9,194 bases of DNA from a virus (Duplodnaviria; Heunggongvirae; Uroviricota; Caudoviricetes), in IMG/VR virus record IMGVR_UViG_2526164630_000024. One strand, written 5' to 3'. Positions 1,093-9,194 of the stretch are shown here, in pieces. Numbering within the stretch: position 1 is the first letter of the stretch; each line of letters starts with the position of its first letter. The notes beneath the pieces are model-generated. The model ran no database searches. It worked only from the letters and a program-made list of their open reading frames with translations, and was not told the origin of the DNA. A program made the translations under genes and the position numbers.

Positions 1093-3738
1093 ATGGCAGG
1101 TAATTTTGCCGATCTGACAGCCGTGCTGACACTGGATTCTGCCCGTTTTTCTGAAGAGGCAGCGCGGGTAAAAAAAGAGCTGGGTGAAACCAGTGCGCTT
1201 GCTGATTTGATGTCCGGGAAAGTCAGTCAGTCTTTCAGAAAACAGGCTGACGCTGCTGAGCAGAGTCTGAGCCGACAGGCGCTGGCTGCACAAAAAGCCG
1301 GGATATCAGTCGGACAGTATAAGGCTGCCATGCGCACACTGCCCGCACAGTTCACGGATATTGTCACTCAGCTTGCCGGTGGTCAGAATCCCTTCCTTAT
1401 CATGCTGCAGCAGGGGGGCAGATCAGCGATTCATTCGGTGGACCGCTCAGCCTGCTTACCCTGCTGAAGGAGGAACTTCTCGGGATCAGGGATGCCTCTG
1501 AATCATCAGAGGAGTCGCTGTCAGATACGGCAAATGCACTGGCTGAAAATGCCCGGAATGCCGGTGAGCTGGGACGATTTATGTCGGTGGCCCGTGTGGC
1601 GGCAGGTGGCGGGGTTGCCGTACTGGCCGCGCTTGCTGCCGCCGCCTGGCAGGCAGAGCAGGCTGACCGGGCCTTATTGCGTTCACTGATCCTGACCGGA
1701 GGGGCGGCTGCCACCACAACGGCAGAATTGTGGAAAATGGCCGGGGTGATCAGCGATGAAGCCGGTGGTGGTATCAGACAGGCGGCAGAAAATCTGGCCC
1801 GTCTGGCAGAAAGCGGGAAATATACCGCCGGGCAGCTACGGATCATGGGGGAAACCTCGTCAGAGATGGCTGCAGACGGTGGGGGACGATGCCGGGAAGG
1901 TGGAAAAAGCCTTTGAAGGGATTGCAGCAGATCCGGTGAAGGCGCTGGCCTCCCTGAATCAGCAGTATAACTTCCTGAGCGTTTCCCAGTTACGCCATAT
2001 TGATGAGCTTGAGCGCACGAAAGGTAAACAGGCTGCGGTGACGGAGGCGATGTCCCTGTTTGCGGATGTCATGAATGCACGTCTGGAGCAACTTGATAAA
2101 GCGGCCACGCCGGTGGAAAAAATCTGGGACGATGTTAAAACCTGGACTTCTGACGCATGGGCATGGATAGGTGATCATACACTGGGGGGCACTCAGTCTG
2201 ATCACTGACGTGGTGGCCGGAACCGTTGAACAAGTGAAGCTGCTGCTTGTGCAGGGGGATCTGGCGCTGGCTGAATTTTATTCAGTCAGCCTGGGAAACG
2301 ACAAAGAATGTGCCCGGCGTTGGTGCGTTGTTTGGTGAACTGGCAGAAGAGAACCGCGTATTTATTGAGAAAACAAAACGCGATGAACTGGCGCTGAGAA
2401 AATCCATTGCGGAACGGGATGCGCGTATACGCCAGGGGGAAATGGGGTACATCAACCGCTCGCGTGCAACAGGCGTCAGCAAAGGTCCAGGGCAGCAGGA
2501 AGCCGTCAGCCGTCTGGCTGAAGAGCTGACAGGTAATAAGCATACATCACCGAAAACGCGCTCTGCCGGGGAGAGGGAAGAGGAGCAGGCAAGAGAAGCT
2601 CTGCTTGCCCTTGAAGCTGAGCTCAGGACGCTGGAAAAACACAGCGGTGCGAATGAGAAAATCAGCCGGCAGCGCCGTGATTTATGGAAGGCGGAAAGTC
2701 AGTATGCGGTCCTGAAAGAGGCTGCCACGAAACGACAGTTATCTGAGCAGGAAAAATCCCTGCTGGCCCATGAGAAAGAGACGCTGGAGTACAAACGCCA
2801 GCTGGCTGACCTGGGCGACAAGGTTGAACACCAGAAACGCCTGAATGAGCTGGCACAGCAGGCGGTGCGGTTTGAAGAGCAGCAGAGCGCGAAGCAGGCC
2901 GCCATCAGCGCAAAAGCCCGCGGTCTCACTGACCGTCAGGCGCAGCGGGAGTCTGAAGCGCAGCGTCTTCGGGACGTGTACGGTGATAATCCGCAGCGCT
3001 GGCCAAGGCCACAGCGGCACTGAAAAACACATGGGCGGAGGAAGACAGCTGCGCGGAAACTGGATGGCCGGGCTGAAGTCCGGCTGGGGCGAGTGGGCGG
3101 AAAGTGCGACGGACAGTTTTTCGCAGGTTAAAAGTGCTGCCACGCAGACCTTTGACGGTATTGCACAGAATATGGCGGCGATGCTGACCGGTGCAGAGGC
3201 AGACTGGCGGGGATTCACCCGTTCGGTGCTGTCCATGATGACAGAAATCCTGCTTAAACAGGCCATGGTGGGCATTGTCGGGCGTATCGGCAGCGCCATT
3301 GGCGGTGCTTTCGGTGGTGGTGCATCTGCTTCCTCGGGGACGGCCATTCAGGCTGCGGCGGCGAACTTCCATTTCGCGACCGGAGGATTTACGGGAACCG
3401 GCGGCAAATACGAACCTGCCGGGATAGTCCACCGCGGGGAGTTTGTCTTCACGAAAGAGGCAACCAGCCGGATAGGCGTCGGCAACCTGTACCGTCTGAT
3501 GCGCGGCTATGCGGAAGGTGGTTATGTGGGTGGTGCCGGAAGTCCGGCGCAGATGCGGCGGGCGGAAGGTATTAATTTTAATCAGAACAATCACGTGGTG
3601 ATTCAGAACGACGGCACCAACGGACAGGCGGGGCCGCAGCTGATGAAGGCGGTGTATGACATGGCCCGCAAGGGGGCGCAGGATGAGCTCCGGCTGCAGT
3701 TGCGTGATGGCGGTATGTTATCGGGGAGCGGGCGATGA
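1093..3738 (+). pseudogene. H: Tail tape measure protein H, full-length locus but reading frame switches at least 7 times
   Basis: ATG at 1093 preceded by GGAGG at 1080-1084. Translation starts MAGNFADLTAVLTLDSARFSEE...QSLSRQALAAQKAGISVGQYKAAMRTLPAQFTDIVTQLAGGQ, as in lambda gpH. The lambda-like sequence continues through successive frames and ends ...HVVIQNDGTNGQAGPQLMKAVYDMARKGAQDELRLQLRDGGMLSGSGR* at 3736-3738. Frame junctions lie at about 1413-1418 (G6), 1881-1885 (G5), 2184-2189 (G6), 2289-2298, 2994-2997 and 3047-3051. The locus is 882 codons against 853 aa for lambda H as I recall it. Confidence 0.85.
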
Positions 3739-6330: not shown

Positions 6331-9194
6331 GTGGGTAAAGGGGGCGGCAAGGGGCACACGCCGGTAGAGGCAAAGGACAATCTTAAGTCCACGCAGATGA
6401 TGAGCGTGATTGATGCGATTGGTGAGGGACCGATAGAAGGCCCGGTGAAGGGACTGCAGAGTATCCTGGTGAACAAAACCCCGCTGACGGACACGGACGG
6501 TAATCCCGTGATACACGGTGTGACTGCGGTCTGGCGCGCCGGGGAGCAGGAGCAGACACCACCGGAAGGCTTTGAGTCCTCCGGAGCTGAAACCGCACTG
6601 GGCGTGGAAGTGACGAAGGCAAAGCCGGTGACGCGCACCATTACGTCCGCGAACATTGACCGCCTGCGGGTCACCTTCGGGGTGCAGTCACTGTTGGAGA
6701 CCACCTCAAAGGGCGACCGTAATCCCTCTTCTGTCCGACTGCTGATTCAGTTGCAGCGTAACGGTAACTGGGTGACGGAAAAGGATGTCACCATTAACGG
6801 CAAGACCACCTCGCAGTTCCTGGCGTCGGTGATTCTGGATAATCTGCCGCCCCGGCCCTTTAACATCCGGATGGTCAGGGAGACGGCGGACAGCACCACG
6901 GACCAGCTGCAGAATAAGACGCTGTGGTCGTCATACACCGAAATCATCGATGTGAAACAGTGCTACCCGAACACGGCCATTGTGGGGCTGCAGGTGGATG
7001 CGGAGCAGTTTGGCGGTCAGCAGATGACGGTGAACTACCATATCCGCGGTCGCATCATCCAGGTACCGTCAAACTATGACCCGGAAAAACGCACGTACAG
7101 CGGCATCTGGGACGGCAGCCTGAAACCGGCATACAGCAACAACCCGGCCTGGTGCCTGTGGGACATGCTGACTCACCCGCGCTACGGCATGGGAAAACGT
7201 CTGGGGGCGGCAGACGTGGACAAATGGGCGCTGTATGCCATCGGGCAGTACTGCGACCAGACGGTCCCGATGGTTCGGGGCACAGAGCCGCGGATGTACC
7301 TTTAATGCGTACCTGTCACAACAGCGTAAGGCGTGGGACGTTCTCAGTGATTTCTGCTCGGCGATGCGCTGTATGCCGGTATGGAACGGCCAGACGCTGA
7401 CGTTCGTTCAGGACCGCCCGTCGGATGTGGTGTGGCCGTACACCAACTGCGATGTGGTGGTGGATGATAACGGCGTGGGGTTCCGCTACAGCTTCAGCGC
7501 CCTGAAGGACCGCCACACGGCGGTGGAGGTGAATTACACCGACCCGCAGAACGGCTGGCAGACCTCCACGGAACTGGTGGAAGACCCGGAAGCCATACTG
7601 CGCTACGGGCGCAACCTGCTGAAGATGGATGCGTTCGGTTGCACCAGTCGCGGTCAGGCCCACCGTGCCGGGCTGTGGGTGATAAAGACCGGACTGCTGG
7701 AAACGCAGACGGTGGATTTCACGCTCGGGTCACAGGGGCTGCGTCACACACCCGGTGACATTATTGAAATCTGTGATAACGACTATGCCGGGACCCTGAC
7801 CGGCGGACGTATCCTGTCCATCGATGCCGCCAGCCGCACCCTGACACTGGACCGTGAGGTGACCCTGCCGGAGACAGGTGCCGCCACGGTGAACCTGATT
7901 AACGGCAGCGGTAAGCCGGTGAGCGTGGCCATCACTGCACACCCCGCGCCGGACCGGATACAGGTCAGTACCCTGCCGGATGGCGTGGAGACATACGGTG
8001 TGTGGGGACTCTCCCTGCCGTCACTGCGCCGTCGCCTGTTCCGCTGTGTCTCCATCCGGGAAAACACGGACGGCACCTTTGCCATCACGGCGGTGCAGCA
8101 CGTACCGGAAAAAGAAGCCATCGTGGATAACGGGGCCAGCTTTGAGCCGCAGTCAGGCACCCTGAACAGCGTCATCCCACCGGCAGTGCAGCACCTGACG
8201 GTGGAGGTGAGCGCAGCTGACAGCCAGTATCTGGCACAGGCGAAATGGGACACGCCGCGGGTGGTGAAGGGCGTGCACTTCAGTCTGCGCCTGACCAGCG
8301 GAAGCGGTCAGACAGCCGTCTGGTGACCACCGCCATCACCGCGGATACAGAGCACCGTTTCAGCGGCCTGCCGCCCGGGGAATACACCCTGACGGTCAGG
8401 GCAATTAACAGCTATGGCCAGCAGGGCGAACCCGCCACCACCACCTTCCGGATTAACGCACCAGCAAAACCCGCCACCATTGAACTGACACCGGGCTATT
8501 TTCAGATAACAGCAGTCCCGAAACTGCCATGTATGACCCGACGGTACAGTTTGAGTTCTGGTTTTCGGAGACAAAAATCGCAGACACATCTCAGGTGGAA
8601 ACCTCTGCCCGTTATCTGGGGACCGGCCGTCAGTGGAGTGTATCCGGCCCGCACATTAAGCCCGGGAAGGATTTCTGGTTTTACGTGCGCAGCGTCAACC
8701 TGGTGGGGAAATCTGCTTTTGTGGAAGCCAGTGGCCGGGCCAGCAATGATGCAGAAGGGTATCTGGAACTGTTCCGGGAAAAAATAGGAAAACGCATCTG
8801 GCACAGGCGCTGTGGGAGAGATAGACAACAGCCAGCTGAGGACGAAATGGCGGAAATGAAGACCACCATCACAGAAACCCGCAATGAAATCACACAGACG
8901 GTCAGTAAAACGCTGGAAGACCAGAGCGCCACCATTCAGCAGATACAGCGCGTGCTAGAAGGACACAAATGATGACCTGGCTGCGCTGTACATGCTGAAG
9001 GTTCAAAAAACGAAAGACGGCATTCCCTATGTGGCCGGGATTGGTGCAGGGATTGAGGATACTGATGGCCAGCCACTGAGCAACATACTGCTGCTGGCTG
9101 ACCGTATCGCGATGATAAATCCGGAGAGCGGCAACAGCACGCCGTTATTTGTGGCGCAGGGGAATCAGCTGTTCATGAACGACGTGTTCCTGAA
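6331..9194 (+). pseudogene. J: Tail tip host-specificity protein J (central tail fibre), 3' partial at window edge, reading frame switches at least 5 times
   Basis: GTG at 6331 preceded by AGGAGAGGGGGA. Translation starts VGKGGGKGHTPVEAKDNLKSTQMMSVIDAIGEGPIEGPVKGL, matching lambda gpJ (MGKGSSKGHTPREAKDNLKSTQLLSVIDAISEGPIEGPVDGL). The lambda-J-like sequence then jumps frame at about 7288-7300, 8306-8312, 8520-8530, within 8790-8840 and at 8967-8973, and runs off the window end (...[16 protein letters not shown]). Confidence 0.88.

Follow-up and report, generated by a model that had tools for sequence, protein, structure and literature searches.

The window analysed here is the whole of contig AIGX01000080.1 (9,194 bp; locus L018) in GCA_000250155.2, a draft genome from 2012 of the Shiga-toxin Escherichia coli host DEC11C, and proteins from the contig carry the name 'Escherichia coli DEC11C'. 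The AIGX accession belongs to strain DEC 11C, which is of serotype O45:H2 and stx1a-positive (PMC4959244). The window holds a lambda-like siphovirus tail module in which V, G/T, H, M, L, K, I and J all lie on one strand (Table 1). The gene map was projected from an intact relative, L014, with the annotation of other relatives also used, and precomputed Pfam hits on the contig's own gene calls comprise the families of such a module: Phage_TAC_2, Phage_tail_T, TMP_2 with Tape_meas_lam_C, Phage_min_tail, Phage_tail_L, Prok-JAB with NLPC_P60, Lambda_tail_I, and GpJ domains. The same gene order and Pfam families are present in lambda-like prophage tail modules of Shiga-toxin E. coli, including CP-1639 (AJ304858.2; 96.5% identical to the window), Stx1- and Stx2-converting phages, and L014. 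Of 5,426 complete E. coli genomes, 4,573 carry sequence of this kind, at 15,692 places in all (median three, maximum 14 per genome), and the module is itself unremarkable within a prophage family that is very common.

Table 1. Genes, indels and allele patches of the tail module in AIGX01000080.1.
Feature	Position	Strand	Observation
V, major tail protein, 3' part	1..280	+	private 1-nt deletion at 56 (A4 to A3)
G, tail assembly chaperone	294..715	+	private 1-nt deletion at 654
Slippery heptamer GGGAAAG, lambda-type	659-665, near 3' end of G	+	predicted G-T programmed -1 frameshift
T, tail assembly, short 102-aa form	742..1049	+	private 1-nt deletion at 755; Pfam PF06223
H, tape measure	1093..3738	+	six private 1-nt indels; final 690 nt (3048-3738) clean
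H indels	1412, 1859, 2184, 2276, 2995, 3047	+	G7 to G6 at 1412; +G at 1859; G5 to G6 at 2184; T3 to T4 at 2276
Blended patch, left edge of clean block	2990..3070	+	two-allele alternation; deletions 2995, 3047
Clean block	3048..7267	+	H 3' end, M, L, K, I, I-J spacer, J 5' part (6331-7267)
Third-codon-position difference patch inside clean block	3390..3495	+	two-allele blend; protein same
M	3735-4064	+	full length
L	4064-4762	+	full length
K	4773-5516	+	full length
I	5513-6091	+	full length; stop codon TGA at 6089-6091
Private non-coding indel in block	6090..6092	+	A4 to A3, directly 3' of I stop codon
J, tail tip/host specificity	6331..9194	+	ends at contig end; clean to 7267, then nine private indel events
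J indel events	7268, 7276, 7297, 8310, 8525, 8793, 8818, 8837, 8956	+	2 nt at 7276
Blended patch in J	8760..8880	+	two-allele alternation; deletions 8793, 8818, 8837

Alignment to intact relatives reveals 18 frame-breaking indel events involving 19 bases, and these fall at 56–3047 and at 7268–8956. Nine are in the left flank (one each in V, G and T, at 56, 654 and 755, and six in H) and nine in the right flank, every one of them in J, so that the flank rate is 3.62 indels per kb. No frame-breaking indel is present in the same alignment within 3048–7267, a gap of 4,221 nt that takes in M, L, K and I whole, together with 690 nt at the 3' end of H and 937 nt at the 5' end of J. An earlier note on this DNA had described a clean block of about 4.2 kb, from 3052 to about 7288, amid at least 15 breaks; the block itself is confirmed, and its right edge, given there as 7288–7290, was set about 20 nt too late, the first break in J being at 7268. 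We also looked inside the block for the overlooked breaks that the note had allowed for and found none; there are two length differences, both frame-neutral. One is a 5-nt CGGTT at 4767 in the L-K spacer, a common natural variant that is also found in L004–L008, and the other is the non-coding A4-to-A3 deletion after gene I, the sole private indel within the block.

That a uniform process would rarely leave such a gap, as had also been claimed, is upheld by a probability of about 2e-4 to 3e-3 under uniform placement (for a gap of at least 4,221 nt in 9,194 nt, 2.3e-4 with 18 events, and 2.6e-3 when events no more than 60 nt apart are merged into 14 clusters). Inclusion of the event at 6090 shortens the largest gap to 3,043 nt and raises P to 9e-3 to 3e-2. 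Composition is not the reason for the gap, because homopolymer runs of four or more are about as dense in the block (14.0 per kb) as in the left (14.1) and right (11.4) flanks, and we therefore rejected a scarcity of homopolymers as the cause of its cleanness.

Comparison with 17–25 other loci shows that the private differences of the window consist of 19 indel events and only four substitutions; all four substitutions are in the flanks, and 22 of the 23 private differences lie outside the clean block. Spontaneous mutation in E. coli yields 10 substitutions per indel in the wild type and five in mismatch-repair mutants (bioRxiv 10.1101/346874). Changes in homopolymer length make up only about half of the indels, and those at 755, 1859, 3047, 7297, 8793, 8818 and 8956 affect single non-repeated bases, which counts against a technical origin. 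Restoration of 20 bases gives a sequence of 9,204 nt, the same length as the intact relative, in which V through J contain no internal stops and the differences are mostly synonymous.

The lesions are also largely confined to this one contig. All seven frameshifted products that were tested (G 294–686; H 1581–1916, 1879–2208 and 2247–3023; J 6331–7305, 7475–8326 and 8529–8972) occur on AIGX01000080.1 alone among 153 billion gene positions, and an exact 50-mer spanning the 7268–7297 indel cluster has no match in species-representative genomes or viral contigs. The exception is the H fragment at 1093–1467, whose end results from the G7-to-G6 change at 1412 and which is found again in 38 blocks from other assemblies; since it is recurrent elsewhere, this change could be a real slippage variant. 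We considered that the 3047 break might be inherited, as the 224-aa C-terminal H product of 3064–3738 is common to other genomes, but rejected this, since those genomes carry another deletion upstream and have only the downstream start codon in common. The proteins encoded in the clean block are known alleles, with K found in 66 blocks, from which 24 contigs were read, while I is on 17 contigs and M on at least 1000.

Genuinely defective lambda-like prophages with a similar tail module provide a useful comparison, and four of them (L024, L025, L029 and L030) have frameshifted H and J genes. Their breaks are inherited, with an H break at all four of these loci and a J break in L024, L025 and L027, and they have one lesion per gene, common to independent assemblies. 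The window, in contrast, has six in H and nine in J, its tested frameshifted products are private (1412 excepted), and it has almost no substitution load; a cryptic prophage would be expected to show lesions reproducible in independent assemblies, an excess of substitutions over indels, and stop codons, and apart from 1412 none of these is seen. In intact prophage relatives from Shiga-toxin E. coli the genes are whole, and the 18 frame breaks of the window are common to none of them.

The nearest relatives, L014, L016 and L017, are all intact. The closest is L014, a fully intact prophage in GCA_011886105.1 that is 98.9% identical to the window, with not a single SNP in 4256–7863, an interval that spans the right edge of the block, and 0–3 SNPs per 300 nt in 1–3000. 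No identical copy of the window was found by whole-window and per-segment searches of the 5,426 complete E. coli genomes and a phage collection; there the window as a whole is matched at 97.4% at best, its left flank at 99.2%, the block at 97.1% and the right flank at 97.6%. The earlier note had asked for a test of whether the block has a different best hit from the flanks, and among complete genomes it does, although L014 remains the backbone on both sides. These differing best hits first suggested that the block was a recombinant insert, an interpretation we rejected because the same relative, L014 from a draft genome, is the backbone throughout. In a gene-converted segment the nearest relative should change at both edges, but this is not observed here, and the left edge is a blend rather than a junction.

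The nature of this blend is apparent from the sites that separate two allele families. At 28 such sites in 2990–3070 the window reads AA-ABBBBABABBAAAABA-BBAABBAB (dashes stand for two informative sites lying in the gaps that the deletions at 2995 and 3047 leave in the alignment), with 12 switches between families, whereas each of 29 other sequences belongs purely to A or to B, with 0–2 switches. In 8760–8880 the window has 12 switches at 25 sites and 15 other sequences have 0–6. Five of the deletions fall within these two patches, and more generally eight of the 19 indels are no more than 11 nt from a SNP relative to L014 (P = 5e-4). A site-by-site alternation of two families is also seen at 8505–8535, and there are no private alleles in any of the three patches; the mixing of paralogous alleles site by site and without private alleles at 2990–3070 and 8760–8880 is as expected of a collapsed repeat. 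At 3390–3495 a common allele is blended with one of the L009/L012 type (7 switches at 18 sites), yet the 224-aa product is identical to that in other genomes; mixed haplotypes in this interval are also present in three other assemblies, which counts against an artefactual origin of this blend. We note too that the left-flank indels at 56, 1412, 1859, 2184 and 2276 have no nearby SNPs, such that blending cannot be shown there, and that the 7268–7297 cluster and the 6090 event are inside a pure single-haplotype stretch, which counts against blending as their source.

Taken with what the contig is, the restriction of the lesions to it, their indel-only spectrum and the continuity of the backbone, this site-wise blending leads us to conclude that the broken tail genes and the clean stretch very probably reflect a consensus of uneven quality, built from a collapsed prophage repeat, rather than biology. 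Strains of the O45:H2 stx1a-positive type carry several lambda-like prophages with near-identical tail modules, and we assume that reads from more than one co-resident copy in DEC11C were merged into a single consensus of this repeated module. Read-level length errors that were not outvoted would then have remained as the 19 indel events, mostly of one base, while the clean 4.2-kb block would be a stretch with a well-supported consensus: 4256–7863 is a single haplotype, identical to that of the real intact prophage L014, and in 3048–4255 the merged alleles would differ by simple substitutions only. At the level of the reads, the cause, including that of the better support of the middle, may have been the collapse of copies, low depth, or correction that failed in repeats. 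In all likelihood the pseudogene pattern is not real, and the tail genes of the actual prophage are most likely intact, or have at most an occasional lesion.

Contigs that are collapsed repeats or chimeric consensus sequences with residual indel errors are a known class of draft-assembly artefact, and the window resembles them in being a short contig of a multi-copy repeat with mixed paralogous alleles and private one-base indels, whose genes are intact once repaired; we find nothing contradictory to membership of this class. The whole contig is tail module, a sequence that is multi-copy in complete genomes. Uneven assembly quality was one of three options raised in the earlier note, and it is the one that accommodates a short, whole draft contig with private one-base indels, few substitutions and two-allele patches. 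Among the observations that run counter to this technical reading is that the sole private indel in the block is non-coding, as selection would predict, but it is one event.

The other two options both suppose that the breaks are real. In one, a cryptic prophage has decayed and gene conversion, with an intact co-resident prophage as donor, has later overwritten the 4.2-kb block. Lambda-like prophages in these strains are indeed mosaic, the best matches among complete genomes are different for the block and the left flank, an allele change (2994–3138) coincides with the block's left edge, and single inherited frameshifts are real in H and J of related prophages, as in the H break shared by four loci. 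We nonetheless regard it as quite improbable, because the L014 backbone continues on both sides with no junction visible at the right edge, and the 12 switches within 80 nt at the left edge are not a clean junction; moreover, decay producing 19 indels should have brought about 95–190 substitutions and some stop codons, against the four private substitutions and no stop after repair, and product searches find the lesions in no other assembly (the 1412 product excepted). Mosaicism or conversion is thus unsupported as the cause of the clean block. In the other, purifying selection keeps M, L, K and I, possibly along with the 5' part of J, intact in a decaying prophage; these four genes are all full length, and the one private indel of the block is in the non-coding I-J spacer, 1–3 nt past the stop codon of I. 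Selection does not explain the block, because the block does not follow gene borders but takes in 690 nt of H, a gene already broken, and 937 nt of J. By a hand calculation, the flank rate predicts 6.8 indels for these unconstrained parts of H and J plus the spacers, against one seen (Poisson P ~0.009); private synonymous changes would be allowed within the block, yet all four private substitutions are in the flanks, and real decay of any sort is disfavoured by an indel-only spectrum and by lesions that are private to the contig. We therefore find selection for a tail-tip subset extremely unlikely, and it is just as hard to believe in the particular form in which V, G, T, H and J of the DEC11C prophage are riddled by indel-biased mutation and M, L, K and I are selected for their own function.

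Two further explanations accept that the errors are artefacts. The spacing might be a chance gap left by a uniform error process, and it is true that the events are clustered (7268–7297 and 8793–8837), so that their effective number is below 18, and that counting 6090 relaxes the probability; but the gap is improbable even with 14 clusters, the four private substitutions avoid the block as well, and homopolymer density is equal, which leaves this explanation with very little credibility. Somewhat less remote, but still unlikely, is that this is a single-copy contig with plain low-coverage read errors toward both ends and no merging of prophage copies. Both error-rich parts are contig ends and the clean part is the middle, about half of the indels are changes in homopolymer length, and those of the left flank show no sign of allele mixing. 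Random read errors, however, would not generate the alternation at 2990–3070, 8505–8535 and 8760–8880 without private alleles, nor account for deletions that lie at complex allele differences, and error-rich stretches of 2–3 kb are probably much longer than a coverage taper would give.

If uneven consensus in a collapsed repeat is the correct reading, then caution is warranted with short repeat contigs in old drafts of multi-prophage E. coli, which can be multi-copy chimeras with many false frameshifts, and pseudogene counts, reports of decaying prophages and seemingly new mosaic alleles that derive from such contigs are unreliable. Such contigs may be flagged even without reads by the ratio of private indels to private substitutions, by read-through after repair, and by how often the sequence switches, site by site, from one allele family to another.

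A second repeat contig, from another draft of the DEC collection, behaves in the same manner. The tail-module contig AIFK01000034.1, which from its AIF accession series we take to be from DEC3F (O157:H7), in agreement with its DEC3F-named proteins, has at most 99.3% identity to any complete genome, and departs from its two closest loci by four one-base indels and by SNP patches of the same kind as those in the window.

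Successive alignments of the window, with three, seven and finally fifteen relatives, confirm that frame breaks are missing from a block of approximately 4.2 kb, at 3048-7267; the earlier note had placed the block correctly, with the right edge off by about 20 nt. The observation is therefore correct, and its cause is very probably technical and ordinary, namely uneven consensus quality in a collapsed prophage repeat. Relative to the aligned loci, 19 indel events are private (present in the window and absent from the compared loci), 14 deletions and 5 insertions that together involve 20 bases, with a net change of -10 nt. 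Eighteen break a frame, nine of them within 56-3047 and the other nine within 7268-8956; the remaining event, a contraction of A4 to A3 at 6090-6092, falls directly after the stop codon of I and breaks none. A gap of this size has a probability under uniform placement of P = 2.3e-4 for the 18 events and P = 2.6e-3 if they are counted as 14 clusters, and we note that homopolymer density does not differ between block and flanks. A further difference, of 5 nt at 4767, is a natural variant often seen in the L-K spacer (4763-4772), of which 5-nt and 10-nt forms (with an extra CGGTT) are both seen in intact prophages.

A look-up of the exact K protein led to a contig identical to the window, AIGX01000080.1 (9,194 bp, assembly GCA_000250155.2); the window is thus a complete short draft contig consisting solely of a repeated prophage segment. 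AIGX is DEC 11C, an O45:H2 strain of phylogroup B1 that is stx1a-positive with eae epsilon (strain table, PMC4959244), and proteins deposited on the contig are named 'Escherichia coli DEC11C'. Its reading frames form a broken plus-strand array, which similarity searches assign to the tail module found in lambda-like prophages of Shiga-toxin-producing E. coli, and the locus has the gene order, Pfam families and slippery heptamer of such modules. Identity is 96.5% to CP-1639, a prophage with the same tail-module gene order, and reaches 97.4% in the best-matching of 5,426 complete E. coli genomes; 4,573 of these carry the sequence, at 15,692 places in all, the median being 3 copies per genome and the maximum 14. 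The nearest relative, L014 (GCA_011886105.1, region 5226-14429), is 98.9% identical across the whole window with all genes intact. The gene map was drawn from annotated relatives and one intact close relative.

Coordinates of genes and other features in the window
Feature	Position	Strand	Basis
V (3' part)	1-280	+	map from relatives
G	294-715	+	map from relatives
T	742-1049	+	map from relatives
H	1093-3738	+	map from relatives
M	3735-4064	+	map from relatives
L	4064-4762	+	map from relatives
K	4773-5516	+	map from relatives
I	5513-6091	+	map from relatives
J	6331 to beyond 9194	+	map from relatives
Slippery heptamer GGGAAAG, lambda-type, for programmed G-T frameshift (predicted)	659-665	+	sequence
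Contig-only frameshifted product	294-686	+	database look-up
Contig-only frameshifted product	1581-1916	+	database look-up
Contig-only frameshifted product	1879-2208	+	database look-up
Contig-only frameshifted product	2247-3023	+	database look-up
Contig-only frameshifted product	6331-7305	+	database look-up
Contig-only frameshifted product	7475-8326	+	database look-up
Contig-only frameshifted product	8529-8972	+	database look-up

At the position of the heptamer, L014 and a second tail-module locus (L001) read GGGAAAA, and the private 654 deletion precedes it by 5 nt; a natural G-T frame change could pass for a break to a reader without tools. The end of T and the start of H (900-1500) occur in two sharply distinct allele families with 78-105 differing sites per 300 nt, one pairing a T of 102 aa with an H of 881 aa and the other a T of 137 aa with an H of 870 aa; the short T is flagged as incomplete by the annotation pipeline even in otherwise intact prophages.

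Several independent lines of sequence comparison say that the frame breaks appear not to be biological. Against 17-25 other loci there are only four private substitutions (1251, 2537, 8029 and 8277) to set beside the 19 private indels. Substitutions outnumber small indels 10-fold in wild type mutation-accumulation lines of E. coli and 5-fold in mismatch-repair mutants (bioRxiv 10.1101/346874), so real decay with 19 indels would be expected to bring approximately 100-200 substitutions. Restoring 20 bases gives 9,204 nt, the exact length of the intact relative, with no internal stop in any gene from V to J, and most of the remaining differences leave the protein unchanged (H has 31 at the nt level and 9 at the aa level, J 37 and 10). 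Seven frameshifted products are unique to this contig among 153 billion indexed gene positions, and the intact alleles are widespread: K is in 66 indexed database blocks, 17 contigs carry I and at least 1,000 carry M. Inherited frameshifts in related prophages amount to one lesion per gene, common to independent assemblies, whereas the window has six private lesions in H and nine in J; the locus does not have the features of a genuinely decaying prophage.

There is one exception to this privacy, as the product ended by the G7-to-G6 contraction at 1412 recurs in 38 database blocks, and many of its carriers are megabase-scale contigs or complete chromosomes. This G run (1413-1418, in H) is a recurrent hotspot, biological or technical, reflecting either real slippage or a recurrent platform error. 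The contraction ends a 124-aa N-terminal H product, is found at loci L031-L038, and is the sole H break in most of the places shown in other assemblies.

Nearly all of the differences from L014 are alleles known in other prophages, grouped in short patches. At 2990-3070, 28 sites split two allele families, A and B, between which the window switches 12 times (AA-ABBBBABABBAAAABA-BBAABBAB), whereas each of 29 other sequences is purely of one family, with 0-2 switches; this patch includes the deletions at 2995 and 3047. At 8760-8880, which contains the deletions at 8793, 8818 and 8837, the window has 12 switches at 25 sites versus 0-6 in 15 other sequences. A short patch at 8505-8535, containing 8525, is similarly blended, and the blended J patches include an allele of the L004/L010 type. 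Between the indels at 654 and 755 is another short patch (665-708), of a different allele type. Eight of the 19 indels lie no more than 11 nt from a SNP relative to L014, although only 10.8% of positions qualify (P = 5e-4). Alternation at nearly every informative site, with no private alleles in the alternating patches, would be expected where reads from two diverged copies are called column by column into one consensus; natural recombination would require a dozen crossovers within 80 nt. In the features that can be tested, the locus matches a collapsed or chimeric repeat contig.

The clean block too contains blended stretches (3390-3495 and 4013-4255), without any length error, because the alleles there differ only by simple, mostly third-position substitutions. 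In the first of these, which lies in H, two allele families differ at 18 third codon positions, and mixed haplotypes are present in the window and in three other assemblies (L031, L033 and L036); the stretch may be a hotspot of natural gene conversion, or those assemblies may share the artefact. The L protein encoded in the window has no exact match on any other contig and joins a patch of the L006/L007/L009 type (4152-4255) to an end of the L008 type (4702-4732), so that it may be a chimeric allele made by assembly.

The earlier note had offered mosaicism or gene conversion, selection, and uneven sequence quality as explanations of the clean block. That the block was converted from an intact copy in a really decaying prophage is highly improbable: the L014 backbone runs through the right edge without change, at the left edge there is a blend and no junction, and the locus lacks the features of a recombinant block. 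Purifying selection keeping M, L, K and I intact amid real breaks is, we judge, less credible still. Its only hint is a single event, the sole indel in the block being non-coding, and the block disregards gene borders; with 3.62 indels/kb, as in the flanks, the 3' end of the already broken H, the spacers and the 5' part of J would be expected to hold 6.8 events, versus one seen (Poisson P about 0.009). Moreover, none of the four private substitutions is in the block, and 22 of the 23 private differences are in the flanks. Both readings also require real mutations, which these lesions do not resemble. Uneven quality is favored by the indel-dominated spectrum, the clean repair, the private lesions and the blended patches.

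Why the middle should be clean may be explained by divergence among the prophage copies. There are no SNPs relative to L014 in 4256-7863, which is therefore a single haplotype, and because the K-I part (4500-6000) is 3-16% diverged from common alleles in an unbiased panel, we infer that reads of other copies were not merged there. Merging is visible at 3048-4255 and would be harmless, and the flanks, within about 1-5% of common alleles, would show mixing or unresolved length calls. However, the cluster at 7268-7297 and the deletion at 6090 sit inside the pure single-haplotype stretch, and the left-flank indels at 56, 1412, 1859, 2184 and 2276 are in SNP-free sequence, which could not reveal mixing. 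Thin coverage would also be consistent with the pattern, as would failed correction of reads that map to more than one copy.

As a control we used AIFK01000034.1 (L027), a 5,059-bp tail-module contig of another draft assembly, which we take to be from DEC3F (O157:H7) given its DEC3F-named proteins and the accession series. Although O157:H7 is clonal and heavily sampled, the contig has at most 99.3% identity to any complete genome; it differs from its two closest loci by SNP patches and four one-base indels, which sit in L, K and J; this suggests that such defects are general to repeat contigs of these drafts.

Other frameshifts recur among the compared loci. In H, four assemblies (L024 and L025, around 5830-5960; L029/L030) share a 1-nt deletion that lies upstream of the equivalent of window position 2995, and a split of J after 391 aa is common to L024/L025 (10396-10444) and L027 (4420-4450); both look like genuine inherited pseudogenes. 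In the complete genome of E. coli O145:H28 RM12581, J (L008, 7648-11123) and K (L010, 4976-5718) are annotated as frameshifted in different prophages.
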